From NCBI GenBank assembly GCA_041661045.1, contig JBAZVE010000001.1, positions 750,001 to 782,000 of the forward strand: 32,000 nt of DNA. Direction: 5' to 3'. Below are positions 7,516 through 32,000 of this stretch, piece by piece. Within the stretch, counting starts at the first letter, position 1. The number at the start of each line of letters is the position of its first letter. The DNA comes from Candidatus Saccharimonadota bacterium (GTDB taxonomy: Bacteria > Patescibacteriota > Gracilibacteria > UBA1369 > 2-02-FULL-48-14). Under the pieces are notes generated by a model. The model worked only from the letters and a program-made list of their open reading frames with translations. It did not search any database and had not been told where the DNA came from. The position numbers and the translations under genes were made by a program.

Positions 7516-7556
7516 GCTTTAGAGTTAGAGATATAGGCGCACAGGGAATCCTATGC

Positions 7557-7976
7557 TTAAATGGCAGACTTGTCCACCTGGAGTACAATCTGCAAAATGC
7601 CCTGTACGATGGCATAAGAAAGCAAAATCAAAAGGAGTCCCACCAGAGCCCAAGTGGTCCCTCGTTTCCCTTTTTCGATCCGCTCGTCCTTTCCAAAGGC
7701 AAAAATGTAATTGAATCCCGCAATCATAATAAAAATCACGGTGAGTGCACCAGTGAAGAGCAGCACTTGGCTGATGATCTTCCCCACAAACATAATGGCG
7801 GTTTGGGTGGCGGCAGTTTCGGGATGATCTGCATCCACGGCCTCTTCCGCTTCTATGGTGGGCAAACTGTCCGGCCTCAAATTATCGTCCAGTTGCAAGG
7901 CCGCCCAGCTCAGGTCGGCGTTCAAGAGGGAGAAGGAAAGTCCCAAGGCGATGGTGAGGAGGAGTTTTTTAATCAT
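7557..7976 (-). CDS. VirB2/TrbC-like (T4SS_pilin-type) membrane protein
   Basis: I chose the ATG at 7976 (MIKKLLLTIALGL), preceded by GAAGGAAG and overlapping the upstream stop by 8 nt. The layout is signal peptide, acidic spacer, then a TM-loop-TM module reading FAFGKDERIEKGKRG. Confidence 0.75.
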   Translation of the reverse strand: MIKKLLLTIALGLSFSLLNADLSWAALQLDDNLRPDSLPTIEAEEAVDADHPETAATQTAIMFVGKIISQVLLFTGALTVIFIMIAGFNYIFAFGKDERIEKGKRGTTWALVGLLLILLSYAIVQGILQIVLQVDKSAI

Positions 7977-8877: not shown

Positions 8878-9719
8878 CCGAAAAATCCCGGGTTAATGCT
8901 GTAAAGGAGGAGTCCCGACAGAAAGAGCAAAACCATGCCTCCGATGGCCTGCAGAATTTTATTTTTTGCTTCACTGATGTCTCCGGTGACGCCGGACACG
9001 GAAATTTTGATTCCTTGAAAGACGATTGTTCCCATAAAAATACTTCCCACGGAGAGCGCGGCAAAGGTGAAGATTTGTTTCACCATGAGTTTAATGAGTC
9101 CCATCCCGCTGTCCCCAATCACCCACTGCCGTTTTTCACAATTCACCGCATGGGCAGCACATTCATCGTACGAAAGGCTGTAGAGCGTTCGAACATCATC
9201 ACAACTCACCACTTCACTCCCATTCACCACCCCCGCAAGGCAACACAATCCCGCATAAACGGTGAGGACTTTATTCTGATCATCCAAAACGACATCGCTG
9301 GCAATCACTTCGGTTATCTCTGTCACCAGCAGACCATTTTTCGTACAGTCTCCTTTTTCGAGATAATCGGTGGTTTCATTTGGGGCTCCACATTCTGCAT
9401 TTCCCAGCGTACTTTCATAACTGGCGTTGAATAGCCCATAAAAGTCTTCGTATCTTGTTGCCATTTCTTCTGCATTGTTCGCTCCGGCCTCGAGCTTTAA
9501 GCCGAACGGACATATCAGGGGTGCTTCTATGGCGTTTGCCATTTGATCGTCGGTTCCCAGTACTTCCGTGGTGTCGTTGCCCTCTTCAAAGCTTTCATTG
9601 AACTCATCTTCGCTCATGAGGGGGTCTTCGGTTGGAGCGGCTTCATCCGCAAAAACCAAGATAGCGCCTTGGAGGGTGAGGAGAGAACTGAGGATAAGAA
9701 GGGCGAGGAACTGGCGCAT
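8874..9719 (-). CDS. Secreted Cys-rich domain fused to a C-terminal VirB2/TrbC-like module
   Basis: The signal peptide is MRQFLALLILSSLLTLQGAILVFA. An acidic region and an ectodomain with 8 Cys follow. The C-terminal TM-loop-TM has the loop SGVTGDISEAKNK. Confidence 0.7.
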   Translation of the reverse strand: MRQFLALLILSSLLTLQGAILVFADEAAPTEDPLMSEDEFNESFEEGNDTTEVLGTDDQMANAIEAPLICPFGLKLEAGANNAEEMATRYEDFYGLFNASYESTLGNAECGAPNETTDYLEKGDCTKNGLLVTEITEVIASDVVLDDQNKVLTVYAGLCCLAGVVNGSEVVSCDDVRTLYSLSYDECAAHAVNCEKRQWVIGDSGMGLIKLMVKQIFTFAALSVGSIFMGTIVFQGIKISVSGVTGDISEAKNKILQAIGGMVLLFLSGLLLYSINPGFFG

Positions 9720-9729
9720 GGGAGCGGGC

Positions 9730-10155
9730 TTAATAAAAGAAGGATTGAATAAATACGGTGATGAAATAGGCGAAAAAAGCTAAAAGACAGCCCACAATGG
9801 CCTGGCTGAGAATGCCTTTTGCTTTGTCCACTTGGCCTTCATCTCCGCCGGCGGTGACCATCATAAAACCTCCAATCATAATCACAACGAAGGTGACGGT
9901 TCCAATCAAGAGCGTGAGAATATTGATGATGCGAAGGATGATGGCGGCGGGGACGGAGACCCCTCTCTCGGTGGCTTCATCCGTGATGTTTTCGTAAATT
10001 TCGGTGCTGTCGTTGGTTTGATTGTCTTCGGCATCCAGATCTAAAATTTCTTTCACATCAAAACCGCTATATCCGTTGTCTGCTAAGGCCAGCGGAGAGG
10101 CAAGCAGGCCGCAAGAGGCTAAAAAGAGGACGAAACTGGCGATGATTTTTTTCAT
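9730..10155 (-). CDS. VirB2/TrbC-like (T4SS_pilin-type) membrane protein
   Basis: The signal peptide has either a lipobox-like LASC or an ALA-DN cleavage site. An acidic spacer precedes a TM-loop-TM with loop TAGGDEGQVDKAKGI. It has an ATGA overlap with the ATPase gene. Confidence 0.8.
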   Translation of the reverse strand: MKKIIASFVLFLASCGLLASPLALADNGYSGFDVKEILDLDAEDNQTNDSTEIYENITDEATERGVSVPAAIILRIINILTLLIGTVTFVVIMIGGFMMVTAGGDEGQVDKAKGILSQAIVGCLLAFFAYFITVFIQSFFY

Positions 10156-12263
10156 GTGGCGGGCGAGTTGTCTTTACTATTATACCTGTTTTTCAGTTTT
10201 TCTTCAACCAGGGAAACCGGGCGAGCGCATTGGGCTCTGGAACGGGTTTTTAAGGTTTCGAGCGGGAGTGGGGTCTTGGAGGGGGGCGTTTTCTCAACAT
10301 TCATCCTAAAAAGAGGCAGTGGGCTGCCCTGGTGGAGGAGCTTTGCATAGGCTTGAAAAGGGGCGAGCTGGGTGAGGTCTTCTTCGGTGAGGCTGAGGGA
10401 GGGCGCAAGGATTTGCGCGTCGGCATAACTAGTGCGAAAACAGAGCAGCGAGCCCACATTCCCCAAAATGGCATCTTGAATTTCGTGCGGAACTTGGGTG
10501 AGGTACTGGTTGGCCAGGGTCAGGGCCAAGCCGTATTTTCTGGATTCCGCCAACATGGTGAGCAGGGTTTTGCTGGTGAAGTTTTGAAATTCATCCACGG
10601 TGAGACAAACCGTTTTTCGGCTTTCGGATGGGAGCTCCGCCCGTTGCAAGAGGGTGGACTGAATCATTGAGATGAAAACCATGCCCAGTATGCGGCTGGC
10701 ATCTTCGCCCAGTTTCCCCTTGGGGAGTGAGATCAGCACGATTTTGCTTTCGGCGAAGGCGTTTTTGAAGGAGAACTTGCTCTTGGGTTGGCCAAAAATG
10801 TTTCGGAGGACCGGAAGCGTGAGCAAGGGGCCCACTTTGTTGAGGATCGGAGCGCTGTGTTCTTGCCGGGTCCGCGGGTCTTGTTTTAAAAATTCTTCTT
10901 TAAAAAATCGGTGCAATTCGAAATCGTCCGTGAGCTCGAGCATTTTTCGGCAAAAGGCTTCGTTGGTGAGGAGGCGCGGAAGGTCGAGCAGTGTGGTGTT
11001 TGGGGCGAGAATCAGGAGGAGGAGTGCATTGCGCAAAATATATTCCAACCGTGGTCCCCAACTGCCCTGGGCCAAGACTTCAAACATTTCCACCAAGGCG
11101 GAGGCCTTGAGGTTCGGATTTTCTCCTGGGCAGAGCTCTAAAGGGTTGAGGGCGAGCGGAAAATCGGCATCGCCGGGGTCCAGGAGGAGGATGTCTTTTG
11201 CCCGCTCGAGGGGAGTGAGCCGGAGGGCGTCTTCAATCAAGTCCCCATGCGGGTCCAGCACCACGATGCTTCGGCCGAGTTCGGTATCTTCCCTAAAAAG
11301 ATGCAAAAGTGTTGTGGATTTGCCCATGCCCGTTTTGCCCACCAAGTACAGATGTCTTTTGCGATCTTCTTCCTCAAGCTTTGTATTCCCCGGCTCGGGA
11401 AGGTGGGCGGTGGGTTCGGTGTGCAGATAAGTGGCTTGTTCCTTTGCATTTGGGAGCGAAAGCAGGCTCGCCAGCTCTTCGGCGCTCAGCACGGTTTCTT
11501 GGTTTTTACGACTGAGACTGAGTTCGCCCAAATAAGGCAGGGTGAAGCCGTGCACAAAATCTTTAAAGGGGTGGCTCAGGGTGATTTGTGCTCTAAACAG
11601 AGGTCTGGACAGCTTGTCGAGGATGGCGTGGCGGGGATCTTCCCGTTCGTGCGAGGATTCCATTTGTTCTTGGGGTTCCTGTTTTTGTGTTTTGAGCGGG
11701 GAGCTAAAAAGGCAGTTGCGAAGGAGCGGGCCGAGAAAACGGCGAGCTTTGAAGCTGAACCAGGCCTTACTTTCCCATTGGTCAAAGTGTCTTTCAGGTT
11801 CGAAGCTGCTTTGTTTCACCTTTTTTAGGGCCCGTTCTCTCTGTCTATTTTTGAGGGGAATGAGCTGCAAATGGAGGAAACTGTTTGGGGTTTTGGCCAA
11901 CAGAGGGATCAAGGTGCTCAGGGGTGAAATATGTGTTTTTTGTATCCGATCTTCAAATTGGCTGTACCTTTTGATGGGGAGGAGAGGCCCTTTCTTTTGA
12001 TGGATGAAGTAAAGGGTTTTTGGGCTCGTGGTGAGGAACGATGTGGGGCTTGCTTGTGTTTCGATGAACCGAGAGCCGAGCAGGTGAGTGCTGAGGTCTT
12101 CTGTGCAGAAAAACTGTACTTTTTGGTCTTTTTGACGGATCAGAATTTCGATGGAGCCGGGATGTTTTTGTAGGGTGTGCAGCCAATGGTCGAGGAGCCT
12201 TGGGGAATAGTCACGGGTTTCGCAGAGTCGGAGTTCGTACAGTGTTTTGGCTTGGGGTTTCAT
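10152..12263 (-). CDS. VirD4/TraD/HerA-superfamily P-loop ATPase (coupling-protein-like) with an uncharacterised N-terminal domain
   Basis: Walker A is LVGKTGMGKST, followed by VVLDPHGDL. Walker B-like is VCLTVDEFQNF. Roughly the first 300 aa are unrecognised. No hydrophobic TM segment is visible anywhere in the protein. Confidence 0.8.
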   Translation of the reverse strand: MKPQAKTLYELRLCETRDYSPRLLDHWLHTLQKHPGSIEILIRQKDQKVQFFCTEDLSTHLLGSRFIETQASPTSFLTTSPKTLYFIHQKKGPLLPIKRYSQFEDRIQKTHISPLSTLIPLLAKTPNSFLHLQLIPLKNRQRERALKKVKQSSFEPERHFDQWESKAWFSFKARRFLGPLLRNCLFSSPLKTQKQEPQEQMESSHEREDPRHAILDKLSRPLFRAQITLSHPFKDFVHGFTLPYLGELSLSRKNQETVLSAEELASLLSLPNAKEQATYLHTEPTAHLPEPGNTKLEEEDRKRHLYLVGKTGMGKSTTLLHLFREDTELGRSIVVLDPHGDLIEDALRLTPLERAKDILLLDPGDADFPLALNPLELCPGENPNLKASALVEMFEVLAQGSWGPRLEYILRNALLLLILAPNTTLLDLPRLLTNEAFCRKMLELTDDFELHRFFKEEFLKQDPRTRQEHSAPILNKVGPLLTLPVLRNIFGQPKSKFSFKNAFAESKIVLISLPKGKLGEDASRILGMVFISMIQSTLLQRAELPSESRKTVCLTVDEFQNFTSKTLLTMLAESRKYGLALTLANQYLTQVPHEIQDAILGNVGSLLCFRTSYADAQILAPSLSLTEEDLTQLAPFQAYAKLLHQGSPLPLFRMNVEKTPPSKTPLPLETLKTRSRAQCARPVSLVEEKLKNRYNSKDNSPAT

Positions 12264-12345: not shown

Positions 12346-12378
12346 TTAAAAAATGCGTTGTTGGCGGAGTAACAACAG
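12346..12378 (-). terminator. Possible intrinsic terminator after dus
   Basis: On the minus strand the sequence reads GTTGTT-ACTCCGCC-AACAAC followed by GCATTTTTTAAG. The stem is AT-rich and therefore weak. Confidence 0.35.
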
Positions 12379-12382
12379 GGGG

Positions 12383-13390
12383 CTAGGCGGAACGCAGCTT
12401 CTCCACAATTTCGTTGAGAATGCTTCGGGCTTCCTCCAGAGTGGAGATTTGAACCACCTGGGAGCGGTATTCGCTGGCCCCCTCAAAACCGCGGAGGAGT
12501 TGGACGAAGTGTTTGCGCATTTCCTTCATGCCGCGTTCCTCACCTTTGGATTCCACGCAGAGTTCGGCATGGCGAAGGTAAGTGGGAACCTTGTCTTCAA
12601 AGGAACTGGGCGGGGTGTATGTGCCTCCATAAAGAGCCGCGGCGATTTCCGCCATGAGCCAGGGATTGCCCATGGTTCCTCGGCCCACCATGACTCCGTC
12701 CAGAGTGATGCCGGCATACGGAGAGTCGCCGGATGCGGTGAGCTGAGCGAGGGCGTCGGCCGCGCTGCGAATGTCTCCATTCCCAATCACCGGAATGCCT
12801 ACGGCTTGTTTCACTGCGTAAATGGGGGTCCAGTCGGCGCGGCCCGTGTACATTTGCTTGGCCGTTCGCCCGTGAATGCTCAAGAGCTGGGCACCTGCAC
12901 TTTCCATATCTTTACAGAACTGTACAAACCAGGGGAGATCCACTTTATCGGCACCCACACGGGTTTTAACAGAAACCGGCAGCTTCGTGGCCTTGGCCAC
13001 GGCTTCCACCAATTCCGCGGCACGGCAGGGGTTTTTGAGCAGCGCGGAACCGTGATCGCTGCTCACCACTTTTTTTGCGGGGCAACCCATGTTGATGTCG
13101 ATGGCGTCGATGCCCATGGCCTCGATGCGCTTGGCGGCCTCTGCAAAATGCGCCGGCTTTTTACCAAAAATCTGAGCCACCAAAGGGCGCTCTTCGTTGG
13201 GGTTGAAGTCCAGTTGTTTGAGCGTCATTTTACTGTCGTAGACAATGCCGTCGGCACTGGTGAACTCGGTAAAACAAATCACCCGCGGCTCGATTCCCTT
13301 AATAAGCTGCCTGTAGGCGGTGTCGGTGTAGCCGGCCATGGGGGCAAGCGCAAGAATCGGCCGCTTTGCGGTTTTCCAGGAAAATGCCAT
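12383..13390 (-). CDS. dus: tRNA-dihydrouridine synthase
   Basis: The N-terminus ILALAPMAGYTDTAYRQL and the overall TIM-barrel Dus pattern (NMGCPAKKV, the catalytic Cys region) support the call. Confidence 0.92.
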   Translation of the reverse strand: MAFSWKTAKRPILALAPMAGYTDTAYRQLIKGIEPRVICFTEFTSADGIVYDSKMTLKQLDFNPNEERPLVAQIFGKKPAHFAEAAKRIEAMGIDAIDINMGCPAKKVVSSDHGSALLKNPCRAAELVEAVAKATKLPVSVKTRVGADKVDLPWFVQFCKDMESAGAQLLSIHGRTAKQMYTGRADWTPIYAVKQAVGIPVIGNGDIRSAADALAQLTASGDSPYAGITLDGVMVGRGTMGNPWLMAEIAAALYGGTYTPPSSFEDKVPTYLRHAELCVESKGEERGMKEMRKHFVQLLRGFEGASEYRSQVVQISTLEEARSILNEIVEKLRSA

Positions 13391-13391
13391 G

Positions 13392-14276
13392 TTATTTGTT
13401 GGGATTCACTTTTGGACCTTTCTCCTTTCCTCCAACAAAAACGATATTGTCCTTTTCGTAATCGCGGAAATCGGGATAGTTGCGGATGGGGGCGCCTTTT
13501 GCCCACGCCACTCCAAATCCTTGTTGATCTTCAAAGAGAGCGGACAATACGAAGACTGAATTTTCTCCCCCAATGCCATCGTAGACGGCGTAGAGGTATC
13601 CAAAAGGTTCACCCGCCTTGTCGATTTCTCCTTGTCTGGGGTCGGATGGGATGGTTTCAAAGGCATCGCTCTCTTCCAAAATGGTTTCGATTTCTGCGGC
13701 TGCGGGGTAAGCGCCGGTTTCTTCTTTGTAGGCTTCAATTTCCTCCAAAATGGCAGTCATGTCCTTCACTCTTTGGTCGTTTTCTTCAAGGTAAGTGAGG
13801 TCTTGTTCTTCGTCGTCGGTGATGGAGTCCTCAATGGTTTCCTCGCGGTCGCGATTGGCGAGCCACCAGATTCCGGAGCCTCCGAGTAGAATCACCACCA
13901 CTGCGGGGATGAGAAGGGCCAGGAAGAGTTTTCGTTTTTCAAAGCCTTCATCTTCATTTTCCTCCGTTTCTTCTTCGGGGAGCGTGAGGTCCGGAGCGCT
14001 TTCCACTTGTAAAGAGGCGAGGGGGTCTGGGACGGGGGCGGGATTTGCGGCCGGAGCGGGTGCTGGTGCCGCCGTCGGTGCCGGGGCAGGTTGACTCACC
14101 GCTGCGTGCCTTCGCTCCTCCGCCTGACGCATCAAAGAAAGCGCACGGGCGTTTCCAGGTTCCAATTGCAGAATTTCCAAACACCCTTGAACCACTTTGT
14201 CGTATTCCTTTGCATTGAGCCAAGACTGAACCAAGTTCAGGGCTTCGATCACGCTGATGTCTCCACTGTTTTCCAT
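13392..14276 (-). CDS. Membrane protein: N-terminal TPR-like helix pair, Pro/Ala linker, one TM, C-terminal extracytoplasmic domain
   Basis: The TPR-like segment is AKEYDKVVQGCLEILQLEPGNARALSL. The linker is PAPAPTAAPAPAPAANPAPVP. The TM is LFLALLIPAVVVILLGGSGIWWL. The stop lies 1 nt from the dus start. Confidence 0.7.
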   Translation of the reverse strand: MENSGDISVIEALNLVQSWLNAKEYDKVVQGCLEILQLEPGNARALSLMRQAEERRHAAVSQPAPAPTAAPAPAPAANPAPVPDPLASLQVESAPDLTLPEEETEENEDEGFEKRKLFLALLIPAVVVILLGGSGIWWLANRDREETIEDSITDDEEQDLTYLEENDQRVKDMTAILEEIEAYKEETGAYPAAAEIETILEESDAFETIPSDPRQGEIDKAGEPFGYLYAVYDGIGGENSVFVLSALFEDQQGFGVAWAKGAPIRNYPDFRDYEKDNIVFVGGKEKGPKVNPNK

Positions 14277-16185: not shown

Positions 16186-16986
16186 TTATATGCCACCGGG
16201 GGGAGAGTCATCGTAGTCCGTTTTTTTCTTGTTGAGGTGGTCTTGCAATCTGCGCTTAAAGAAGGGATCAAAGGGTACGATGTCCCCGGGATTTCCATTG
16301 AAGGTTTGGATGGTCCCATCTACTCCATTCCAGAATACTTCAGTTGGGAGTGCCTTATAACTCTCAAACAGAGCGTTAAAAATTTCATCTTCTCCCATGC
16401 CCGCGCTCCAGTTGATGCACATAGCTTTTAGAGCCCGTTTAAACCTTGTGACCTGTATGCCCTCCCGTTCTTCCATTTGTAGCCTTGTTGTTTGCTCGAC
16501 TATGGTGTTAGAGGTTTCTGTGTTTAATGAAAGTAGTCTGCGTAGGTCCGCCAGAAGATTGGCGATATCGGCTTCTTTAAGGTTGTCGAGTTTTTTTGCC
16601 TCCATGACGAGGGTCACCAAGCACTTGATTGCTGTATCCCAAGTGCTTGCGGGAGTGAGTTCCGTTTCCGGTTGGCTCTCGATTTTTTTAAGTGCTAAAG
16701 CGGCTTCGATGATTGTGGTCAAACGGTCATCCTTGATTCTGTTGGTCCCTACACTTCGTTTCAGTTGAGCAGCTAAGCGGAGTACTTCTTGAGGTTTGGG
16801 TGCTGCTGGTGGTGTTTTTGCGGCTCTTTTTAAGCCACCTCCAAAACTTCGAATCAACTCAATTGGCTCATCGCCGACTGGGTCTTCTTCTGTTCGGGTG
16901 GACTGCGGTAGGGCACGAATACCCGCCCCCCTGGTCGGCAGGTGGAAAAGATTACTAGGCTTGGGCTCGGGAAATTCTGTGGGCAT
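16186..16986 (-). CDS. Hypothetical protein (orphan, atypical codon usage)
   Basis: 266 aa with ATG start. It uses CTA/ATA/AGA/TTA/ACA codons more than the housekeeping genes here. I recognise no motif. Confidence 0.55.
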   Translation of the reverse strand: MPTEFPEPKPSNLFHLPTRGAGIRALPQSTRTEEDPVGDEPIELIRSFGGGLKRAAKTPPAAPKPQEVLRLAAQLKRSVGTNRIKDDRLTTIIEAALALKKIESQPETELTPASTWDTAIKCLVTLVMEAKKLDNLKEADIANLLADLRRLLSLNTETSNTIVEQTTRLQMEEREGIQVTRFKRALKAMCINWSAGMGEDEIFNALFESYKALPTEVFWNGVDGTIQTFNGNPGDIVPFDPFFKRRLQDHLNKKKTDYDDSPPGGI

Positions 16987-20348: not shown

Positions 20349-21230
20349 ATGGTTTGTAAGGATGTCAAACAGCCTGTTGACGATTTTGAACAAAGGCGTA
20401 TCCTTCGCTCTTGGCTTAATCTTAATGCACAACTTATGTCACAGCTTGATGCATCACAACGAAATCTTTTTGAAATGATACAGAGCGCCCCTGTTGTAGG
20501 ATCAGAAGCGGCTGATCCCGTAAGAGATTTATTAGCTCAGGCACGGATTCGGCTTGATCAATCTGGCCTAGTTCCGCTTGTTTTCGAGGAGGGAAGACAG
20601 CGATATGATGGTGGCCCTGTCATTGGAGGTGATGCGTTTTATTATGTAGGTCAGAGAAGGAATGATGTGGGTGTTAATGATGCGGTTATAGAACGATTGC
20701 GGAGAAAAATGGCGGGAGATGAAGCTTTTACAAGAGCCGCCCTGTGGATGCCGAAAGGCATTCAAGTGGTTGGGGTAAGACCAGATGGTCAACTTGAGAT
20801 TCGTCAGGCATCCACAGAAATTGTAAATGCACGATGGTCAACAAATTATCCAGCAGAGCCAAGGGATCGAAGTGGGTTGCGTCTATTGCCTCACGATGAG
20901 GCAGAAGCTCAGGAACGAGGAGCCTGGGCAACTATTCTTGAGATTCATCATGCAGTAAAGGCAGCAGGCTATCATGTGCCAGAAGATGCACCCAATCTCA
21001 AAAAGAGCGGGCTCGTCGCTGCTTCAGAAGCAGTGATGGGGACTCGCTATGTTATGGGCTCAGGGGATTGGTCATGGCGAAATGCGAGTCTTGAATCCCC
21101 TGACGACATTGATGGGAAGGTTCTTGTGCGTTCCGTGCGGTCTCTTCATCGTGGTGGGGAGTCCATTGAGGAGCGAAAGGCTTCCGTTAGTGATCACAAT
21201 CATGGTGCGGTGCTCTGGTTAAGAGCTTAG
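20349..21230 (+). CDS. Hypothetical protein (orphan, atypical codon usage)
   Basis: 293 aa with ATG start. Ala codons are mostly GCA/GCT, unlike the neighbouring genes. No signal peptide, TM or recognisable motif. Confidence 0.55.
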   Translation: MVCKDVKQPVDDFEQRRILRSWLNLNAQLMSQLDASQRNLFEMIQSAPVVGSEAADPVRDLLAQARIRLDQSGLVPLVFEEGRQRYDGGPVIGGDAFYYVGQRRNDVGVNDAVIERLRRKMAGDEAFTRAALWMPKGIQVVGVRPDGQLEIRQASTEIVNARWSTNYPAEPRDRSGLRLLPHDEAEAQERGAWATILEIHHAVKAAGYHVPEDAPNLKKSGLVAASEAVMGTRYVMGSGDWSWRNASLESPDDIDGKVLVRSVRSLHRGGESIEERKASVSDHNHGAVLWLRA

Positions 21231-23814: not shown

Positions 23815-25041
23815 TTAGCCTCCGCTGCGCTTCGGCTTGAAGGATATCACAAAAATAATCCATGCCAAGAGGATTATCACCGCACCTGTTAAAATGGCTA
23901 AATTTTCGTTTATAGTCACTAAAAATCCGGCCACCAGCGAGGGAATGGCTTGGCCCAAAGCGCGCAAAGATTGGGTGATGCCCATGGCTTCGCCTTGTTC
24001 GCTGGGTTTGCTGATCTGTGAAACCACGGCGGTGGTGTTGGGGAAGGTGAGTCCTTCAAAGAGGGCGAGAAAGGGCTGGCTGAGGTAAAGGAGGGTGACG
24101 CTGGGAATAAATGGAACCACGAAAAGAGTGGCCGAGAGGCAGAGTATGGAGAAGCGAAGCGTGCCTTGTGGGCTCAAATATCGTGCGGCGATGCGTGTGA
24201 AAAGCCCCTGACTTAGGGCGATCCAAATCCCCACGAAACCAAACAAGGTGCCGATTTGTGCACTGCTCATTTCGTACTTTTGAACCAAGAAGACTGGCAT
24301 AAATTGGGTATAAAAACAAAAACCAAGGGCGTGGAGGAAGACCACCAAAAAGATGGAGCGCAGATGTTTCATGTGGAAGGACTTGGCGATGTGCTGGAAG
24401 CCCAAAAAGAGGTGTACCCGCTGATGGGTTGGGTTTTTGAGGGTTTCTTTAAAGAAAAAGGTGAGCAAGGTGAGGCTGAGGGCGGAAAGCAGTGCGGCAA
24501 AATAGAACGGTACCGCGGGGCCGAACCACGGTAATATAGATGGATCGGCCAGCTTTCCGCCCAAAAATGGTCCCACCACAAAGCCCAGCCCAAACGCCAT
24601 TCCAATAAGGCCAAAGTTTTTGGCGCGGGTCTCGTCGGTGCTCATATCGGCAATGGCGGAATTGGCCACACTGATGTTTCCTCCCGTAAATCCGTCCAGG
24701 GCGCGGCTAAAATAGAGCAACCACAGTTGTTGAGTCACGATTCCCACGGCAAACAGCAAATACCCAAAAAAGGTTCCTATCAAAGAGATGGAGAGCATTT
24801 TTTTGCGTCCATAGCGGTCCGAGAGTGTGCCAAGAATGGGCGCCCCAAAAAATTGTCCCAGCGGATACACCGCCACCAGCACGCCCAGCGCAATGTTCCG
24901 CGTGGCCTCCGTCCACAGTGTTGGCACCAAGGTGCTCATGGGGTCGAGCATCATGGGCGCCAGCACCGGAATCATGATCCCAATCCCCATCAAATCTAAA
25001 AAGACGATGATGAAAAGGGTGAGGAATTTGGAGTTTTTCAC
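23815..25041 (-). CDS. MFS transporter (drug:H+ antiporter-like)
   Basis: It has motif A GTLSDRYGRKKML and about 12 TM segments. I prefer the GTG at 25041 (MKNSKFLTLFIIVFLD...), which overlaps the HEPN stop as GTGA. The track start at 25101 is a TTG that would overlap the HEPN gene by 64 nt. Confidence 0.85.
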   Translation of the reverse strand: MKNSKFLTLFIIVFLDLMGIGIMIPVLAPMMLDPMSTLVPTLWTEATRNIALGVLVAVYPLGQFFGAPILGTLSDRYGRKKMLSISLIGTFFGYLLFAVGIVTQQLWLLYFSRALDGFTGGNISVANSAIADMSTDETRAKNFGLIGMAFGLGFVVGPFLGGKLADPSILPWFGPAVPFYFAALLSALSLTLLTFFFKETLKNPTHQRVHLFLGFQHIAKSFHMKHLRSIFLVVFLHALGFCFYTQFMPVFLVQKYEMSSAQIGTLFGFVGIWIALSQGLFTRIAARYLSPQGTLRFSILCLSATLFVVPFIPSVTLLYLSQPFLALFEGLTFPNTTAVVSQISKPSEQGEAMGITQSLRALGQAIPSLVAGFLVTINENLAILTGAVIILLAWIIFVISFKPKRSGG

Positions 25042-25370
25042 TTTATTAGTTTTTGAATGTCTTTTTTGAAAGGAGGAAGATCTTCTTGAATGGTTCTCCA
25101 AATCAATTCCATGTCGAGGTCAAAGTAGTGATGAATAATCATATCGCGCATTCCACATGCATCCTTCCAGGAGATGTGAGCAAGGTCTTTTCTAAATTCC
25201 TGGGGTAATTGTTTTGTGGCCTCTCCGATCACTTCAAATTTTCTTAGAACTGCGTCTTGGGTCTTTTCATCTGACAAAAAATTTACCAAATCGATTCCTT
25301 TCGTGTATGCCTCGATCGATTCCAAGCACTCAAGAATGTGCTTGAGATACTCCTGTTCATCTTTCTTCAT
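25038..25370 (-). CDS. hepT: HEPN-domain (DUF86) toxin of a HEPN/MNT module
   Basis: 110 aa with an Rx4H motif in GMRDMIIHHY. It has an ATGA overlap with the upstream nucleotidyltransferase gene. Confidence 0.85.
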   Translation of the reverse strand: MKKDEQEYLKHILECLESIEAYTKGIDLVNFLSDEKTQDAVLRKFEVIGEATKQLPQEFRKDLAHISWKDACGMRDMIIHHYFDLDMELIWRTIQEDLPPFKKDIQKLIK

Positions 25371-25654
25371 AAGATTTTTGCTTCATCTTTAAGGATTCTT
25401 TCTTTTAGAGAGGGGCGGATCGAGTTGTAAGTCCCTATGTCTACCTTTCTCTCCACGATTTCTTCTAAATCGCTTTTTAGGCGCACGAGATCAAAATAGG
25501 TCTTGCCTTTTTCCAGTTCCACCAAGATGTCTAAATCGCTCTCAGGGGTTTCTTCGCCTCGAGCAAAAGATCCAAAAATTCCCGAACGGACCACGCCCGC
25601 TTTTTTTAAAATGGGAACGATTTGCATCTGGATTTTTTTAATTCTTTGTGTCAT
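25367..25654 (-). CDS. mntA: Minimal nucleotidyltransferase (MNT) antitoxin
   Basis: 95 aa with the GSFARGEETPESDLDILV motif (GS...DxD) of the pol-beta NTase fold. Confidence 0.85.
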   Translation of the reverse strand: MTQRIKKIQMQIVPILKKAGVVRSGIFGSFARGEETPESDLDILVELEKGKTYFDLVRLKSDLEEIVERKVDIGTYNSIRPSLKERILKDEAKIL

Positions 25655-26393: not shown

Positions 26394-26426
26394 ATTGTGT
26401 TACAATACAGGGAAACAAAAATAAAT

Positions 26427-27095
26427 ATGTTCACGCCGGAAGCATTTCTGTTCGGGTTCACTCAAGGTTTTGTCCTTGGCCCATTGAGTCTCTATGCTAT
26501 TCGTGAAGGATTGAATCCAAAGAAGGGTTTTTGGTATCAACTTCAGGTTATTTTGGGATCTTTTGTTGTGGATATTGTTTATTTGCTCATGGCCACTTAT
26601 GGCATTGCGCACTTTGTTGAAAATCAGTGGGTCAAGGTGGTGATGTGGACTTTTGCGGGTTGTATTTTGATTCGAATGGGCTTCAACTCTCTCCATGAAA
26701 AACCAGGTCGTTTGACTTATATTAAACTTCATGGGCATCGGCTCACTTTTTTTGACAACGATTTTGTGAAGGGATTTATAGTGAGTTTGTTTAATCCTAT
26801 GGCGGTGGTCTTTTCCCTTATGATTGTGGGCAGTCTTTATGCTTCTTATGCGGGCTCCAGTGGTCCTGCCACTTTTGCTATGAATGTAAATTTGGGTGGA
26901 GTTGCCGCTGGCTTAATTGTCTGTGGTCTTACTTATGCGGTTCGTCAAGTTTTCCATGCGTGGATGATTAAAAAGCTCATGTTTGTGGGATCTATGGTTT
27001 TGATCGGTTATGGAGCGTATTTTTCTTTTAAGGCCTTTGCGGAAATTCAACCCATGGTTGAGGCGGCATTTGCTTCCATATATTCCGCAATGTAG
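26427..27095 (+). CDS. LysE/RhtB-family translocator
   Basis: I chose the ATG at 26427 (MFTPEAFLFGFTQGFVLGP...). The track start at 26397 is a GTG. The protein has about six TM segments with a LysE-like N-terminal pattern. Confidence 0.75.
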   Translation: MFTPEAFLFGFTQGFVLGPLSLYAIREGLNPKKGFWYQLQVILGSFVVDIVYLLMATYGIAHFVENQWVKVVMWTFAGCILIRMGFNSLHEKPGRLTYIKLHGHRLTFFDNDFVKGFIVSLFNPMAVVFSLMIVGSLYASYAGSSGPATFAMNVNLGGVAAGLIVCGLTYAVRQVFHAWMIKKLMFVGSMVLIGYGAYFSFKAFAEIQPMVEAAFASIYSAM

Positions 27096-27901
27096 TCCTG
27101 GTAAGCGTCCATGAGTTTTTTTGTGATGGGTCCAGGTTTTCCGTTGCCCACCTTTTTATTATTGAGCTTGGTGACGGGAATAAGCTCTCGCGGGCGATTG
27201 GTGAGAAAGATTTCATCGGCGGATTTGAGGGCGCCGAGTTTTATGTTTTTTTGGATGACTGGGATTGCTAGTTTTTTGGCAAGGGCCAAAACTCGTTTTC
27301 GAGTGAGCCCTGGTAGCATGCCTGTTTTTGGTGTGATGATTTTCCCGTTTTTCACAATCATCAGGTTGGTTGAGGCTCCTTCGGGAATGTTTCCGTCTGG
27401 GCTTACTATAAGAGCTTCATAAATACCTTTTGGAAAAAGTTCTTTATAAGCCACGACCATATGAGTGAGGCCCACAGTTTTTATTTCTGGCAAAATGCGC
27501 TGTAAATGCATGGTTACCACGGAAACTCCACTGGAATAATCTTTTGGGTTGAGGATAAGAGGCTCGCATGTGACCACGGCAAGAGGATTTTTGGTGCAGG
27601 TGAAATCAAAATCATTCACTCCTCGAGAAATCGTGATGCGTACTCGTGCTGACTTTGCTTTATTTCGATCGGCGGTTCCTTGAATCCAATTTTTGAGCTG
27701 CTTCTCTGTCCAAGGAAGCTCAATATTCATGACTTGAGCGGAGTGTAAAACCCTTTGGACATGCAATTCGAGTTCCAAGACTTTGCCTTTGTAGGTGCGC
27801 ATGGTGTCGTAAAAACCATCGCCATAGAGGAAAGCGTTGTCCAAAACAGATATTTTGGCTTGTTTATCGTTCATCCATTTTCCGTTGATGCAGATGATCA
27901 T
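27047..27901 (-). CDS. Class IV (fold type IV PLP) aminotransferase, branched-chain/D-amino-acid family
   Basis: Supporting segments are FLYGDGFYDTMRTY, the Lys-containing EIKTVGLTHMV, and EGASTNLMIVKNGKIITP. Its start overlaps the upstream stop (TAATG). Confidence 0.85.
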   Translation of the reverse strand: MIICINGKWMNDKQAKISVLDNAFLYGDGFYDTMRTYKGKVLELELHVQRVLHSAQVMNIELPWTEKQLKNWIQGTADRNKAKSARVRITISRGVNDFDFTCTKNPLAVVTCEPLILNPKDYSSGVSVVTMHLQRILPEIKTVGLTHMVVAYKELFPKGIYEALIVSPDGNIPEGASTNLMIVKNGKIITPKTGMLPGLTRKRVLALAKKLAIPVIQKNIKLGALKSADEIFLTNRPRELIPVTKLNNKKVGNGKPGPITKKLMDAYQDYIAEYMEANAASTMG

Positions 27902-29310
27902 TAGGGTTGGGGTTCGTTACACAGGATATCATAAATAATTGGCCAGTTGCTTTCAAAGGCATTCGCAAGAATGATCTTGCTTAGAGCTTCTTGAGATTCC
28001 TCCAAGGTCTTTCCTGTGCCGTGGAGCAGGAGGTCCAGGTTGAGGGCTGGGCGCTTCGCTTCCAAGAAAAGGGTGTTGAGTCCGTAGTTATATAAAGTAC
28101 TGTTGGCTTGGCAGAGGTCTGAGTCGGCTCCGGCTCGGTTGTAGACTTCTTTCATGGACGCTAGGTAGTGCATTTGGTTGAAGCCGCCCAAACAGTTGAA
28201 GCCGTAATACAGGTGTATCACCGTGTAGATGAGCAGCAGGTTGGGCATGAGGGCTTTTTTCCGCAAAGCCTGGGCCACGGCCTCGGGGGTGAAGGGGAGG
28301 CTGAAAGCGCCGTCTTCGGTGCAGAGCTGGCCGTCTTTTTTTTGAAGTTTAGTTCGAGTATTTTTTTCTGGATTCACCCACCAAAAGAGGTGGGTAGCCA
28401 GGTTGCCTTGACGCAAAAATTCTTCCATGGCTGTTGTGAGGGAGTCCAGGAATGTGGCTTGGCTGGGGTCGAAGATCAGTTTATGGATGAGGCTTTCGCT
28501 TTGCAGGTGGTTCTCTAGGAGCAGTTCTGTGACCAGGGTTTCCAGATCCACATAAATAAGGCTTTTGGCCTGGGGCTCGTTTTTGAAGATTTTTTCCCAC
28601 AGTTCATAGTTGATCTGAGTGAATTGATCACATAAAGAAGGCGCTGAGAGGATTTCAGGCTTTTTATAAATTTCCGTGAGTACCGCAAAGAGTTTGTCGG
28701 CTTCTTGAGGGCTGACTTCTCCGTTCCGCACTTTCTCATGCAGGGCCTTCTCAATTTTTACAATTTCTTCCAGAGTGTAGGGTCTGAAACCATAAACCAG
28801 GCTGCTGTGGCTGTTGCTTGGTAAAATAGAGAGCTTTTGGAGTTCATAGGAACCATTTTTTTCTGAGTGGAACAAAAGGCCACGGGGATAGTCTTCGTTA
28901 TTGAGAGAAACGCTGGCACAGGACAGTACTACCACATTTTTTAGCACGGGGTCGTTGAGTTCAGCGGCTGCTGCGGCCAGCATCAGGTCGGCGCTGGTTG
29001 GCAGGCTGGAGTTGAGGGTTCCGTGGTGATCGGCGCTGGAGGCTCCGTAATAATGCTCTAGTTGAGTTTTGACCTCGTCGGCTTTGGCTATGCTCAGGCG
29101 GCTAGCTACGATTTTATGAAAGCTGCGTAAAAACTCTTCCTGGCGTTCTTGGGCGGGGGTAGGTAGGTTTTTCAGGTTGGCAATGGCAAAGTCCTTTAAA
29201 GACAGATCCCCATATTTCTCGATCAACTCTTTAAGCAGAGGGCGTTTTTCGAATATGAACGCCTTCTGTTCAGCTGGGCTTGTACCGGCTTGGGATTGCA
29301 GAAAAAACAT
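27901..29310 (-). CDS. Uncharacterised protein, family X (paralog of 31166-32000)
   Basis: I chose the ATG at 29310 (MFFLQSQAGTS...), which avoids a 61-nt overlap with the upstream gene. It shares LFWW/LFWA and YYGxxCLGGFNQxxYLxxMK blocks with the other copy. I recognise no known motif. Confidence 0.7.
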   Translation of the reverse strand: MFFLQSQAGTSPAEQKAFIFEKRPLLKELIEKYGDLSLKDFAIANLKNLPTPAQERQEEFLRSFHKIVASRLSIAKADEVKTQLEHYYGASSADHHGTLNSSLPTSADLMLAAAAAELNDPVLKNVVVLSCASVSLNNEDYPRGLLFHSEKNGSYELQKLSILPSNSHSSLVYGFRPYTLEEIVKIEKALHEKVRNGEVSPQEADKLFAVLTEIYKKPEILSAPSLCDQFTQINYELWEKIFKNEPQAKSLIYVDLETLVTELLLENHLQSESLIHKLIFDPSQATFLDSLTTAMEEFLRQGNLATHLFWWVNPEKNTRTKLQKKDGQLCTEDGAFSLPFTPEAVAQALRKKALMPNLLLIYTVIHLYYGFNCLGGFNQMHYLASMKEVYNRAGADSDLCQANSTLYNYGLNTLFLEAKRPALNLDLLLHGTGKTLEESQEALSKIILANAFESNWPIIYDILCNEPQP

Positions 29311-29348
29311 AGATGCTCTGTGATTATAACGGGTTTGGCTGGGTCTTG

Positions 29349-30101
29349 CTATGCTTTGTCGAAGTGTTGCCAATCTTGCTCCCCGTTCCATTCGGCGCCC
29401 CACTCCCAACCTTTGGCTTTGAATGTGGATACCACGGCGTCACCGTCAACAAGTACTCCTGGCTTTCCTGCTTCATAAATGGCTCCTTCGGGGACGATGC
29501 TGCCGTCTTTGCGGTAATGGGGATTCAGCAGGGGATTGATATCCACCGCACGCCCCTTTGCGTGTCGGGACATGATGGTGGTGCCTGCAATAGTGCGGTA
29601 ATTGAAGCCGGAGCTGTTGTCTACCAGCATGGAGGCATCGTCATCCCATTCAAACTGGGAAACGGGGATAGCGGATCGGACGGGAAACTTTGTCTTAAAA
29701 GCAGCAGCAAATACCTCTTCCACCTCGTTTGCCAGCTCCTCATCCACCACTATTTGGCCCTTATGAGTCAAGCCATCGAAACCTACATAATACACTTCCA
29801 AAAGTGTCTGTTTGGCCAGCAGTTCCTCAGGGCAGTCGTCCCGCAGGCCGTTCACCACTGCTTCTAAATAAGACAGTTGAGCATCCACCACGGCATCGGT
29901 GGGGGCTTCTTCTAAACCATAGTTGGCAAGATTAACGGGCCTGGATTGCAGTTTTCCCTCGGCTTCCATTTGTAACAAACAGATGATTTTAGACCGAAGA
30001 GCCGCTACTTCTTCAGTAACGGGCTCTTGTAAAACATCTTCTCGAGCGCTGAGTTCGGCAGCTCTTGTGTACTCCGTTCTGCCTGGGGCTTGATTTAGCA
30101 T
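29349..30101 (-). CDS. M15-family (LAS superfamily, VanX/VanY-like) zinc metallopeptidase
   Basis: The metal-ligand motifs are SRHAKGRAVD (SxHxxGxAxD) and GWEWGAEW...DWQHFD. Confidence 0.8.
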   Translation of the reverse strand: MLNQAPGRTEYTRAAELSAREDVLQEPVTEEVAALRSKIICLLQMEAEGKLQSRPVNLANYGLEEAPTDAVVDAQLSYLEAVVNGLRDDCPEELLAKQTLLEVYYVGFDGLTHKGQIVVDEELANEVEEVFAAAFKTKFPVRSAIPVSQFEWDDDASMLVDNSSGFNYRTIAGTTIMSRHAKGRAVDINPLLNPHYRKDGSIVPEGAIYEAGKPGVLVDGDAVVSTFKAKGWEWGAEWNGEQDWQHFDKA

Positions 30102-30130
30102 TTGACAAGCAAGTTAATATGTTATATGCT
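30102..30130 (+). promoter_or_regulatory. Candidate promoter, TTGACA-17-TATGCT, for the M14-like gene
   Basis: A perfect -35 hexamer lies immediately beside the divergent M15 gene start, within a 60-bp divergent intergenic region. Confidence 0.35.
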
Positions 30131-30161
30131 CCTGAGCTAGCAACTATAACTCCCTTATCCA

Positions 30162-31169
30162 ATGGAAACAAGCCAATTTGATTACTCAAAGCGAACTCTC
30201 GACAGAGCTAATAAGGGATTGATGGATTCAGAATACCGAGGAGTTCCCGGGGTTAAAGAATTCCGCGGAGAGCAAGCTGGACCTTCTGATCCAGTATTGT
30301 TCATTGGTACTCATACTCATGGAGATGAACCCGGATCAGGTGCGATTCTCCCTGCACTTATGAGTGGAAAAGTTCAACTGGAGCGAGGTCGTGTGATTGT
30401 AGCGGCCAATAATCTTGCTGCAGCGCGAAACGGAAAGCGTGTGATACCTGGTGGATTGAATTACAACCGTCTTCCCGCAGATGATGTTCTAGCTCAAGCT
30501 CATGTGAATAATCCTTCTGTGGATATTCAAAGAATGCGAGCGTTGGCACAAGCAGGTTTACTTGAAGCAACACACGGTTTGGATCTCCATACTATCCCTC
30601 ATTCAAAGATTCCTGGATTTAAACTCCACGAGAAGGGTGATCCTGCTTTTGCAAATGCTATTGGTCTTGAAACTTTTATTGCTGACATCACCAACAACCA
30701 GTTTGATGCAGAGAATCCTACTGGACCTAAGACTGTGGCTTTTGGAAACTACATCGGAGGTTTGCATAATCCTATTCCAGTTGCTGAAATAGAAGGAGGA
30801 GGTAAAGAAACCCCTCGAGTGCGTCAAACCGTTGCTCAAGGAACGCTTTCTGTTATGGCTCAATTGGGAATGATTGATCCTAGCCGTTATGGATTAAAGT
30901 CAAGAGAAATGGAACAACGCTTATACACGGTTACCGACTGGGCTTGGGCACCTGCTGGCTATACTATGGCTCGCGAATTCGAACCTTATGCGGAAGTACA
31001 AGAAGGAGAGCCTGTAATGATTGACGCTACTGAACAAGGGCGGTCACCAATCTTGGCTCCTAGAAGGGGGCACTTGATTATGCCACCCCCATTTGGGAAA
31101 CCTCTCGAGGGAAATGATGACTGGTGGTATTCAGCTCCAGTAGAAGTGAGCCGACAGATGGTGCTTTAA
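30162..31169 (+). CDS. M14-like succinylglutamate desuccinylase/aspartoacylase (AstE/AspA) family deacylase or peptidase
   Basis: GTHTHGDEPGSG carries the HxxE zinc ligands and GLDLHT the third His. AEIEGG is a candidate catalytic Glu. Codon usage is clearly different from the neighbours, dominated by GCT/CCT/GGA/ACT. Confidence 0.7.
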   Translation: METSQFDYSKRTLDRANKGLMDSEYRGVPGVKEFRGEQAGPSDPVLFIGTHTHGDEPGSGAILPALMSGKVQLERGRVIVAANNLAAARNGKRVIPGGLNYNRLPADDVLAQAHVNNPSVDIQRMRALAQAGLLEATHGLDLHTIPHSKIPGFKLHEKGDPAFANAIGLETFIADITNNQFDAENPTGPKTVAFGNYIGGLHNPIPVAEIEGGGKETPRVRQTVAQGTLSVMAQLGMIDPSRYGLKSREMEQRLYTVTDWAWAPAGYTMAREFEPYAEVQEGEPVMIDATEQGRSPILAPRRGHLIMPPPFGKPLEGNDDWWYSAPVEVSRQMVL

Positions 31170-32000
31170 ACTTCTGGAATCTCTATACAAGGTTCAGCCT
31201 TATCGTGAAGTCCGATCATGGTGTTGAGGTCCTTCTCGGTTATCGATTCCAAATCGGGGTCCCATTCGGATTTGTCGTAGGAGATTTTGTACATTTCAGG
31301 CATCAGTGGGGTCAGGGCTTCTTCGAAAGTGATTTGTTTGGCGGAATCTACCAGGCGTTGCCAGCTGTCCTCCTTACCATAAAGAATTAAATCGGGGCCA
31401 CTGGCCAGGGCTACCTCGTGATCGCCATATTCCATAAAGGCAAAGCTGAGTCCGTCACAGATTTCCTTGGTTTGAGCCCGAGCGCAGACTTCAATACTGC
31501 GGTAATTCCCAATATCTACATTCATTTTAATGTATCCGTTCTTCATGTGAGTGAGGTAGTTCACTTGGTTGAATCCCCCAAGACATTTCACGCCGTAGTA
31601 AAAAGAAACGGTTGAAAAAGCCAGTAAGAGACCTGGGATAAGTTCTTTTTCTTCCATGGCTTTTTGAATAATTTCTGGCTTGAGTTCGATCTTGTAAGAT
31701 TCATCTTTGGAAACCAAGAAATTGCCCTTTCTCCAGAGTTGAAGATTGTGTTTGCTCCCTTTGGGCAGGGCCCAGAACAGATAGGTTCCTGATTCATCGG
31801 CTCGTGAGAAAGATCCAAAAATCCCTTCAAAGTACTGATTGATGTAGGGTTCGTAAGTGGGGTCAAAGAGGATGTGGTTTAAGATGGTGTCTTGATTGAG
31901 GTGATGCTTGATGAGCAGGCGGACGACAATATCCTCCAATTCCAGGTAAACCAGGTTGGGGAGTTTCACCTTGCTGGCTTCGAAGAGTCGTGGCCAAAGT
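31166..32000 (-). CDS. Uncharacterised protein, family X, second copy (5' end lies outside the window)
   Basis: The frame stays open to the window edge (LWPRLFEASKVKLPNLVYLELE...). It aligns with the C-terminal half of 27901-29310. Confidence 0.7.
   Translation of the reverse strand, partial: LWPRLFEASKVKLPNLVYLELEDIVVRLLIKHHLNQDTILNHILFDPTYEPYINQYFEGIFGSFSRADESGTYLFWALPKGSKHNLQLWRKGNFLVSKDESYKIELKPEIIQKAMEEKELIPGLLLAFSTVSFYYGVKCLGGFNQVNYLTHMKNGYIKMNVDIGNYRSIEVCARAQTKEICDGLSFAFMEYGDHEVALASGPDLILYGKEDSWQRLVDSAKQITFEEALTPLMPEMYKISYDKSEWDPDLESITEKDLNTMIGLHDKAEPCIEIPEV

Follow-up and report, generated by a model that had tools for sequence, protein, structure and literature searches.

Which process could unite two copies of an uncharacterised protein with two putative zinc hydrolases and an aminotransferase, as happens at one end of a 32,000-nucleotide stretch of DNA from a Candidatus Saccharimonadota bacterium (positions 750,001 to 782,000 of contig JBAZVE010000001.1; the whole stretch is called the window below)? 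The original prediction for this locus suggested that the uncharacterised protein, here named family X, could be the missing part of a system for trimming peptidoglycan stem peptides and salvaging their D-amino acids. We propose that the region is a cytoplasmic module in which a small peptide or amino-acid conjugate is put together, by X as the ligase, and turned over, and estimate the probability of this reading at roughly 45%. It draws on the observed gene content, on residue conservation, genomic linkage and gene fusions, and on similarity of fold.

Open reading frames (ORFs) were scanned and all window proteins were compared with Pfam; all coordinates are window positions unless they follow the number of another locus. 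Both X genes are on the minus strand. X1 has 469 residues from its ATG in the ORF scan and belongs to the short subtype of the family (27901..29310, minus). X2, of the long subtype, is cut by the end of the window, so that the C-terminal 277 codons are present (31166..32000, minus; frame open to base 32000). The string on the minus strand begins with the gene of an M15 zinc peptidase of 250 residues (29349..30101, minus), followed by X1 and by a class IV (fold type IV, pyridoxal 5'-phosphate-dependent) aminotransferase of 284 residues (27047..27901, minus), the stop codon of X1 overlapping the start codon of the aminotransferase as TAATG (...CCC TAATG ATC...). Divergent from the M15 gene, with a start-to-start gap of 60 bp (30102..30161), lies the gene of a cytoplasmic AstE/AspA-type (M14-like) zinc deacylase of 335 residues (30162..31169, plus), on which X2 converges with an overlap of 4 nt. 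The original description is thus correct for all five genes, for the overlap at TAATG and the 60-bp gap between the divergent genes, and for the convergent second copy of X. A LysE-type amino-acid exporter (26397..27095, plus; Pfam LysE 53.7 bits) is a possible further member of the module; its gene is convergent with that of the aminotransferase, the two 3' ends sharing 49 bp, and a terminator-like site was not found at this junction.

X1 has an exact counterpart (100% identity) among deposited proteins, the hypothetical protein P0001 of a 'Candidatus Gracilibacteria' metagenome-assembled genome, and the X2 fragment is 93% identical to residues 235-510 of an intact 511-residue protein from a sister genome (L001). 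X1 and X2 share about 30% identity over approximately 240-470 residues, with E-values of 2e-26 to 4e-83 against full-length orthologues, and on this sequence evidence they are real paralogues. TGA terminates 14 of the 37 window ORFs, which indicates the standard genetic code. The alternative code in which UGA is read as glycine, as in some Gracilibacteria, was ruled out, since these stops are used and none of the five genes is interrupted when translated with code 11. The host is a Peribacteria/Gracilibacteria-class bacterium of the candidate phyla radiation (CPR) with the standard code. The divergent spacer carries a sigma-70-like sequence, TTGACA-17-TATGCT, at 30102-30130 (plus), which agrees with the consensus at 10/12 positions and is a consensus match only. 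An Rfam scan of the whole window gave zero matches, so that no regulatory RNA or riboswitch was seen.

The gene set is not peculiar to this genome. Loci with family X were compiled, 77 in species-representative genomes and a further ten on metagenome contigs (numbered L001 onward); ORFs were called, all proteins were clustered, and the clusters were checked with hidden Markov models, the main counts being made over 81 loci. A class IV aminotransferase lies at most three genes from X in 16/81 loci and within 10 kb in 22/81. A racemase of 250-280 residues is encoded near X in ten loci, in seven of them directly downstream, and ATP-grasp genes of three kinds are likewise near X in ten. AstE-like genes are found in nine loci, LysE genes in four, M15 peptidases of the window's Pfam type (M15_4) in four plus two later loci, and M15 dipeptidases of the VanX/DdpX type (PF01427) in two. 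Thirteen distinct X1-type lineages could be recognised, and an X2-type copy is nearby in 12 of these, a class IV aminotransferase in 10, an AstE-like gene in 10 and an M15 gene in 4. Gene order and strand vary among them, one locus reading X2, AstE-like, M15, X1, aminotransferase, LysE (L085), another AstE-like, X1, aminotransferase, X2, M15, AstE-like (L086). The gene set of the window recurs, reordered, in relatives whose X1 is only 43-55% identical, and this shuffling of the order at such identities argues for selection on the set itself rather than mere inherited synteny. These genes form a conserved module of uncultured Peribacteria-type bacteria. The survey bears out the original view of a conserved functional cluster around two copies of an unknown family, linked to peptidases and an aminotransferase and not randomly scattered.

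Some loci carry further genes beside X. A 467-residue protein without a Pfam match is encoded directly upstream of X1 in L005 (6566-7969, plus), in the usual place of X2; it was ruled out as a member of family X, and a further partner enzyme may have gone unrecognised here. X2-type genes have a PBP2/FtsI-like transpeptidase gene and an M16 peptidase gene beside them in eight loci (L017, L019-L021, L024, L031, L033, L035), and a MurB-like gene is near X2-type genes in three (L059, L068, L071), these annotations being by sequence inspection only. Such neighbours could reflect clade synteny or hint at a connection with the cell wall. The idea that X stands in for a missing peptidoglycan enzyme was rejected on the evidence of one published analysis, of Peribacter, in which the set of peptidoglycan genes is reported as complete (PMC4736985).

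Family X is far larger than simple searches suggest. A word-indexed search with X1 returned only 28 relatives; an exhaustive profile search gave 1,229 cluster representatives (clusters counted at 50% identity) with E <= 0.001, including 596 with E <= 1e-30, and 444 proteins were matched by an X2-type query. Every named source is a CPR bacterium, from the Peribacteria, Peregrinibacteria, Gracilibacteria, Kerfeldbacteria, Magasanikbacteria and Parcubacteria; a few records of metagenome-assembled genomes labelled Gammaproteobacteria are taken to be mislabelled. Two subtypes can be distinguished, a common long one (X2, about 505-555 residues), usually present as a single copy, and a rare short one (X1, 437-492 residues). 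X1, X2 and the X2-type protein P0026 have no match in Pfam, NCBIfam, PHROG or PADLOC, and searches of PDB sequences with single X sequences and with two profiles (A1 and A2) retrieved nothing, in keeping with the earlier remark that the two proteins have no recognisable motif. The sole Pfam match, DUF5659 at 18.6 bits, was under its cut-off and was disregarded. Precomputed Pfam domains are absent from the relatives of X, except for fusion partners. Conservation was computed over 257 members and is given in X1 numbering: H95 and Q229 are conserved in 100%, F309, W310, G375 and Q379 in 99%, G376, R143, E257 and D426 in 98%, and H268 in 96%, and the cysteines C131 and C373 in about 84%. Family X is an undescribed, CPR-restricted enzyme family whose scaffold is known in kind and whose partners and likely product are new.

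The predicted structures give the first indication of what kind of enzyme this may be. Independent AlphaFold models were obtained for X1 (mean predicted local distance difference test, pLDDT, 91.5; predicted template-modelling score, pTM, 0.92; alignment of 27 sequences) and for P0026 (pLDDT 89.5; 52 sequences). In Foldseek searches of the PDB the only significant match of both models was BshC of Bacillus subtilis (4wbd), with E-values of 1.4e-6 (X1) and 3.2e-6 (P0026), a probability of 1.0, and 425 and 515 aligned columns, respectively. The class I lysyl-tRNA synthetase (LysRS) 1irx ranks second, with probabilities of 0.99 (X1) and 0.60 (X2-type) and template-modelling scores (TM-scores) of 0.33-0.37, and the glutamyl- and tyrosyl-tRNA synthetases (GluRS and TyrRS) come after it at noise level. 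In the X models, a near-invariant ST.DHHGP loop, which contains the fully conserved H95, comes after the first core strand and before a long helix, and a GGF(N/S)Q loop comes after the last core strand; these loops occupy the positions of the HIGH and KMSKS motifs of class I synthetases. Family X is thus predicted to belong to the class-I-synthetase Rossmann group as a remote member resembling BshC, while lying outside the BshC family by sequence. The original suggestion was of a novel enzymatic or binding component; the predicted fold, with the ATP-grasp partners described below, points to synthesis, not to binding or degradation.

The secondary matches to LysRS, GluRS and TyrRS raise the alternative that X2 is a housekeeping synthetase-like protein acting in the aminoacylation or modification of tRNA or another RNA, X1 being a specialised duplicate and the neighbouring enzymes supplying or removing its substrate. 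X2-type genes are indeed widespread, mostly single-copy, and often located beside the genes of isoleucyl-tRNA synthetase (IleRS), translation initiation factor IF2 or QueA. We nevertheless consider an RNA substrate improbable, as no match to an anticodon-binding or RNA-binding domain, to a synthetase Pfam model, or to the canonical HIGH and KMSKS motifs was found in X, the nearest fold is that of BshC, which does not act on tRNA, and the fusions of X to a racemase and to ATP-grasp ligases described below point to small-molecule chemistry. The class I synthetases have other offshoots of that kind: MshC and PanC are small-molecule ligases, and MshC provides a precedent for a synthetase-like enzyme that ligates an amino acid to an amine.

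Both paralogues have BshC as their first and sole significant fold match, over 425-515 columns, and it may also be asked whether X is a genuine BshC orthologue, though very divergent, with a bacillithiol-like thiol of low molecular weight as its product, the more so as X fused to ATP-grasp domains resembles the logic of GshAB in the synthesis of thiol peptides. We regard this as very improbable. X does not match the BshC models of Pfam and NCBIfam; neither bshA (a family 4 glycosyltransferase) nor bshB (an LmbE-type deacetylase) recurs among the neighbour clusters of the 81 loci within 10 kb on either side; and the partners of X are a racemase, aminotransferases and enzymes of acidic amino acids, not enzymes of cysteine or malate. 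Among the papers listed in a literature search for BshC in CPR bacteria, no mention of it was found.

A further clue to function comes from gene fusion. Four long members of family X are fusion proteins: P0030 joins X to a racemase (precomputed Pfam PF26317, CntK_N), P0085 joins it to an ATP-grasp protein of our neighbour cluster 54, and P0133 and P0141 to one of cluster 137. The racemase profile matches the histidine racemase HisR (9cr6, 9cr1; E 9e-39) and CntK, and the best NCBIfam models are two histidine racemases, scoring under their equivalog cut-offs. Its invariant residues E43, E66, C68, E191 and C194 correspond to E49, E65, C67, E206 and C209 of HisR, which in that enzyme serve as the catalytic cysteines and as the glutamates proposed to bind the imidazole (PMC11602996). 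The cluster-137 proteins resemble the ATP-grasp domains of cyanophycin synthetase (G domain) and GshAB (E 1e-25), those of cluster 54 the dipeptide ligase LdmS, and those of cluster 45 the RimK/MptN glutamate ligases; a lyase of the fumarase/aspartase family adjoins the cluster-54 gene. X is thus found again and again, by fusion as well as by genomic proximity, together with an amino-acid racemase and with enzymes that form peptide bonds. Acidic amino acids also recur as a theme among the partners, in an AspC-type enzyme (L084), the fumarase/aspartase-family lyase, the aspartate-adding cyanophycin-type ATP-grasp and the AstE/AspA match.

An adenylate-forming type of fold in a D-amino-acid context would also suit an ATP-dependent epimerase that works through an adenylated intermediate, like MurL of the MurD2/MurL peptidoglycan pathway, instead of a ligase. 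MurL, like X, has no known conserved domains (PMC8788868), and C131 and C373 could serve as acid and base. These cysteines are not invariant, Mur ligases do not recur beside X, and a second epimerase would be redundant because racemases and aminotransferases already accompany X, the racemase even being fused to it; we would be very surprised if X proved to be such an enzyme.

For the ligase reading, the aminotransferase would be the likely supplier of an amino acid, and its specificity is therefore of interest. The protein is a clear member of its family (Pfam Aminotran_4 170.2 bits, cut-off 28.5), and the lysine of its LPEIKT motif aligns with the catalytic lysine of 5e25 and 9pxs. Its closest solved structures are archaeal branched-chain amino-acid aminotransferases (BCATs; 5e25, 5cm0 and 5mqz, about 173 bits versus 116 bits for a D-amino-acid aminotransferase, DAAT), and it misses every NCBIfam equivalog and subfamily cut-off (for IlvE, TIGR01122, 183.9 against 245.55, and PRK08320, 210 against 363; for the canonical DAAT, TIGR01121, 163.7 against 277.45). 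Characteristic BCAT motifs are altered, FEGIR to YDTMR, YIR to RVR, and the carboxylate-binding beta-turn 2 GTAA (VTGTAAE) to NRPR (FLTNRPRE), and the altered forms are conserved throughout the X-linked subfamily; canonical IlvE-like paralogues with YIRP/YVRP and GTAA are encoded elsewhere in L065, L068 and L071. An ordinary IlvE with its branched-chain pathway was thus rejected, on the missed cut-offs, the changed motifs and the lack of such a pathway nearby in the window. Of the carboxylate trap of canonical DAATs of the Bacillus Dat type (Y31, R98-x-H100 and xYxQ), Y31 is present, R98-x-H100 is absent, the loop reading RGVNDFDF, and position 88 is R, not Y.

Non-canonical DAATs are described by a different set of motifs, R26, F31, [TY]33, [LA]35, [RK]88 and a basic residue in beta-turn 2 (PMC10003956, Table 2). 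The X-linked enzyme agrees with these at positions 33 (T) and 88 (R) and in the basic residue that stands fourth in beta-turn 2 (NRPR; equivalent to K237 of AmicoTA), and has Y at position 26, Y at 31 and R at 35. AmicoTA is itself structurally closest to the same archaeal BCATs (PMC10003956). R35 and the basic beta-turn 2 residue are of the kind with which DAATs bind the gamma-carboxylate of D-glutamate or 2-oxoglutarate, and together with T33 they point toward binding of one of these compounds. Judged by its motifs, the enzyme is neither an ordinary IlvE nor a canonical DAAT, and D-specificity is no more than plausible. The original choice between a DAAT-like and a BCAT-like enzyme therefore ends with neither canonical type.

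Two other loci bear on amino-acid supply. In the X2-X1 locus L084, an AspC/TyrB-type aminotransferase (fold type I, L-specific; 8404-9552, plus) replaces the class IV enzyme after X1, which looks like non-orthologous displacement. In L034 (4775-8093), a class IV aminotransferase is encoded upstream of X2 on the opposite strand and a histidine-racemase-like gene downstream; the presence of both indicates that aminotransferase and racemase are not simple alternatives and may supply two substrates. The D-amino-acid theme of the original prediction thus finds independent support in the histidine-racemase-like genes that adjoin or are fused to X and in VanX/DdpX-type genes of sister loci, and is qualified by the L-specific replacement in L084.

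The hydrolytic side of the module consists of the two zinc enzymes. The M15 protein (Peptidase_M15_4, 58.6 bits, cut-off 25) carries the zinc motifs SxHxxGxAVD (SRHAKGRAVD) and DWQHF (H-x6-D ... H), conserved in four orthologues; it has no signal peptide upon sequence inspection and no close solved relative. Its orthologues adjoin X in L001, L056, L064, L085 and L086. A phage-type M15 endolysin, which the original prediction had named as a result that would refute it, was considered and rejected: the protein has no PHROG match (E <= 0.001), the window has no phage genes, and the orthologues lie beside X elsewhere. A homologue of the VanX/DdpX-type D-Ala-D-Ala dipeptidases (PF01427) directly follows the class IV aminotransferase in L008 (13798-14502) and the histidine-racemase-like gene in L052 (12347-13492). 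X loci have thus recruited M15 enzymes from two unrelated subfamilies. The link of M15 to the cluster, which had been taken as given, is weak, with M15_4 in four of the 81 loci first surveyed (plus two later ones) and the VanX type in two more.

The AstE-like protein of the window scores 22.6 bits with AstE_AspA_cat, just under the cut-off of 25. Its orthologue in L003 reaches 40.3 bits, and also matches the NCBIfam models for aspartoacylase and succinylglutamate desuccinylase, below their cut-offs. The motifs THGxE (THGDE), NR, DxH (DLH) and ExEGG (EIEGGG) are conserved in ten orthologues, and we take them to represent the zinc ligands HxxE...H and the catalytic glutamate. By sequence the match is to N-acyl-aspartate/glutamate deacylases, not to murein amidases of the MpaA type, and a murein-peptide amidase, a kind of enzyme that the original prediction placed in this family, is not borne out. 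L001, the sister genome, has two AstE-like genes: the second (7074-8045, minus), whose product is 45% identical to that of the first, separates the first from X2. The window has no such second copy; there X2 directly meets the only AstE-like gene, again with a stop overlap of 4 nt. One hydrolase copy has been gained or lost recently. LysE follows the class IV aminotransferase in the same position in L001, L045 and L085, and is near X in L022.

These enzymes bring us to the alternative of catabolic salvage, in which the M15 and AstE/M14-like enzymes would trim imported stem peptides or D-Ala peptides, the aminotransferase and racemase would convert the released D-amino acids, and X would be a hydrolase, a binding protein or an accessory. 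Two zinc peptidases of families associated with D-peptides are present, a racemase and a possible DAAT could turn D- into L-amino acids, and organisms of this kind make few amino acids themselves (PMC4736985). We consider salvage unlikely. X is predicted to fold as an adenylate-forming or ligase-type Rossmann enzyme, unlike a hydrolase or solute-binding protein, and is fused to ATP-grasp ligases; none of the cluster proteins has a signal peptide, and the only adjacent transporter, LysE, is of the exporter type; the peptidases are the least conserved members of the neighbourhoods (M15_4 in 4/81 loci, AstE-like in 9/81); and the AstE/AspA match is to deacylases of another kind than murein amidases. 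No evidence supporting the trimming or salvage of muropeptides was obtained, and the fold of X and its ATP-grasp partners indicate synthesis.

The assembly-and-turnover module that we prefer would then operate as follows. X1 and X2, built on a Rossmann core of the class-I-synthetase/BshC-like kind, would be ligases that join amino acids by amide bonds at the expense of ATP. An amino acid, probably acidic and/or the D-isomer, would come from the class IV aminotransferase, a task that in other lineages would fall to a histidine-racemase-like enzyme or an AspC-type aminotransferase. X2 and X1, acting in sequence or as a heteromer, would form the amide bonds; where, in other lineages, X is fused to or adjoined by an ATP-grasp ligase, that enzyme would add one more residue. 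The product or its intermediates would be hydrolysed by the AstE/AspA-type deacylase and the M15 dipeptidase, either in breakdown or in editing, and LysE may export the product. It is the fold of X, together with its repeated fusion or adjacency to ATP-grasp enzymes, that argues for synthesis rather than degradation or binding; ligase chemistry, the identity of the substrate, D-stereochemistry and the product are what we infer from this evidence. More tentatively, and with a lower expectation of being right, we suggest that X may represent a new, CPR-only class of ribosome-independent peptide or amide ligases, which would make a D-amino-acid-containing di- or tripeptide with the racemase or a non-canonical DAAT, that M15 and AstE enzymes would dismantle and LysE may export.

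Several observations weigh against such a module. The TM-scores of X with BshC are modest (0.41-0.44), indicating a remote fold match; the canonical HIGH and KMSKS motifs are lacking; and kinship of X to BshC or to any synthetase is undetectable at the sequence level with Pfam, NCBIfam and PDB profiles, 4wbd not being retrieved from PDB sequences by the A1 and A2 profiles even at E up to 10. The BshC reaction itself has never been reconstituted in vitro (PMC5790435), for which reason the fold of X suggests amide-ligase chemistry without proving it. The aminotransferase is, in overall sequence, nearest to L-specific archaeal BCATs, and the L-specific AspC/TyrB-type enzyme of L084 makes D-stereochemistry insecure. 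Most X2-type genes are solitary beside housekeeping genes (IleRS, IF2, enolase, penicillin-binding protein), M15_4 is rare near X, and loci from related genomes are not independent observations. Finally, the product of the module cannot be named.

The remainder of the window contains other genes of some interest. A HepT-like RNase (110 residues, Pfam 100 bits) and an MntA-type nucleotidyltransferase (95 residues) form a toxin-antitoxin pair at 25038-25654 (minus), between the genes of a major facilitator superfamily transporter and a TrmB-like methyltransferase. The pair looks like a strain-specific insertion, as the flanking genes are adjacent in L001, about 45 bp apart. At 277-3035 and 7969-12263 the window encodes a type II secretion/type IV pilus platform protein (T2SSF) with three pseudopilins that have an N-methyl motif and, in a separate block, two proteins resembling type IV secretion system pilins and a TrwB/VirD4-like coupling ATPase of 703 residues. 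ORFs of 266-481 residues without a Pfam match are located at 12353-13798, 13392-14276, 3032-4018, 8874-9719, 16186-16986 and 20349-21230; the first two overlap on opposite strands (plus and minus, respectively), so that probably no more than one of the two is a genuine gene.

The CPR accounts for much of bacterial diversity, and for most proteins specific to its lineages no function has been assigned. Family X is large and well conserved, and the prediction that it is an enzyme of the synthetase/BshC type is a confident one. The gene context of X, with a racemase, aminotransferases, ATP-grasp enzymes, two kinds of zinc peptidase and an exporter, is rich enough for the direct design of assays. 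If X is a ligase, it would provide a new scaffold for peptide synthesis without ribosomes, and would indicate that symbiotic ultra-small bacteria make an unknown small molecule. It could also help to explain BshC-type catalysis, an open question since 2010: because the reaction of BshC is itself still unknown, solving X could reveal how enzymes of this type work. If X is a housekeeping protein, the outcome would be a useful but ordinary family annotation.

Among known systems, the best structural comparison is with BshC (YllA of B. subtilis, PDB 4WBD), the putative cysteine-adding enzyme of bacillithiol synthesis, which at about 540 residues is similar in size to X, has a class-I-synthetase-like Rossmann core and works on a small molecule. 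The structure paper of 2015 reportedly describes this core as lacking the classic HIGH and KMSKS motifs. BshC differs from X in its partners, BshA and BshB in place of the aminotransferase, racemase, ATP-grasp enzymes and zinc peptidases, and X is found only in the CPR. The class I aminoacyl-tRNA synthetases, exemplified by LysRS (1IRX), are secondary fold matches; at their motif sites X has a histidine-containing and a glycine-rich loop, in place of HIGH and KMSKS, and it lacks a recognised anticodon-binding domain and a synthetase Pfam match.

With regard to gene organisation, GshAB and cyanophycin synthetase have an ATP-grasp domain like that of P0133 and P0141, and follow the same logic of fusing two amide-forming enzymes; their first module is GshA or a Mur-like domain, not X, and in place of an ATP-grasp gene the cluster in the window carries another X paralogue. 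Comparative genomics is said to have identified neighbourhoods of a RimK-type ligase and an AstE-like hydrolase, in which an AstE/AspA deacylase is paired with an amide ligase. The likeness lies in the AstE/AspA-type zinc hydrolase, with an intact HxxE...H...E, beside an amide-forming enzyme, the partner here being X and not RimK. A further parallel in composition is the VanC-type operon, which consists of a ligase, the racemase VanT and the M15 D,D-dipeptidase VanXY; X loci likewise combine a putative ligase, a putative D-amino-acid-forming enzyme (histidine-racemase-like or class IV aminotransferase) and an M15 dipeptidase (M15_4 or VanX/DdpX). X is not an ATP-grasp enzyme of the Ddl/Van type, however, a VanRS regulatory pair and a demonstrated link to MurF or peptidoglycan are lacking at the X loci, and the racemase here is of the cofactor-independent CntK/HisR type, whereas VanT depends on pyridoxal 5'-phosphate.

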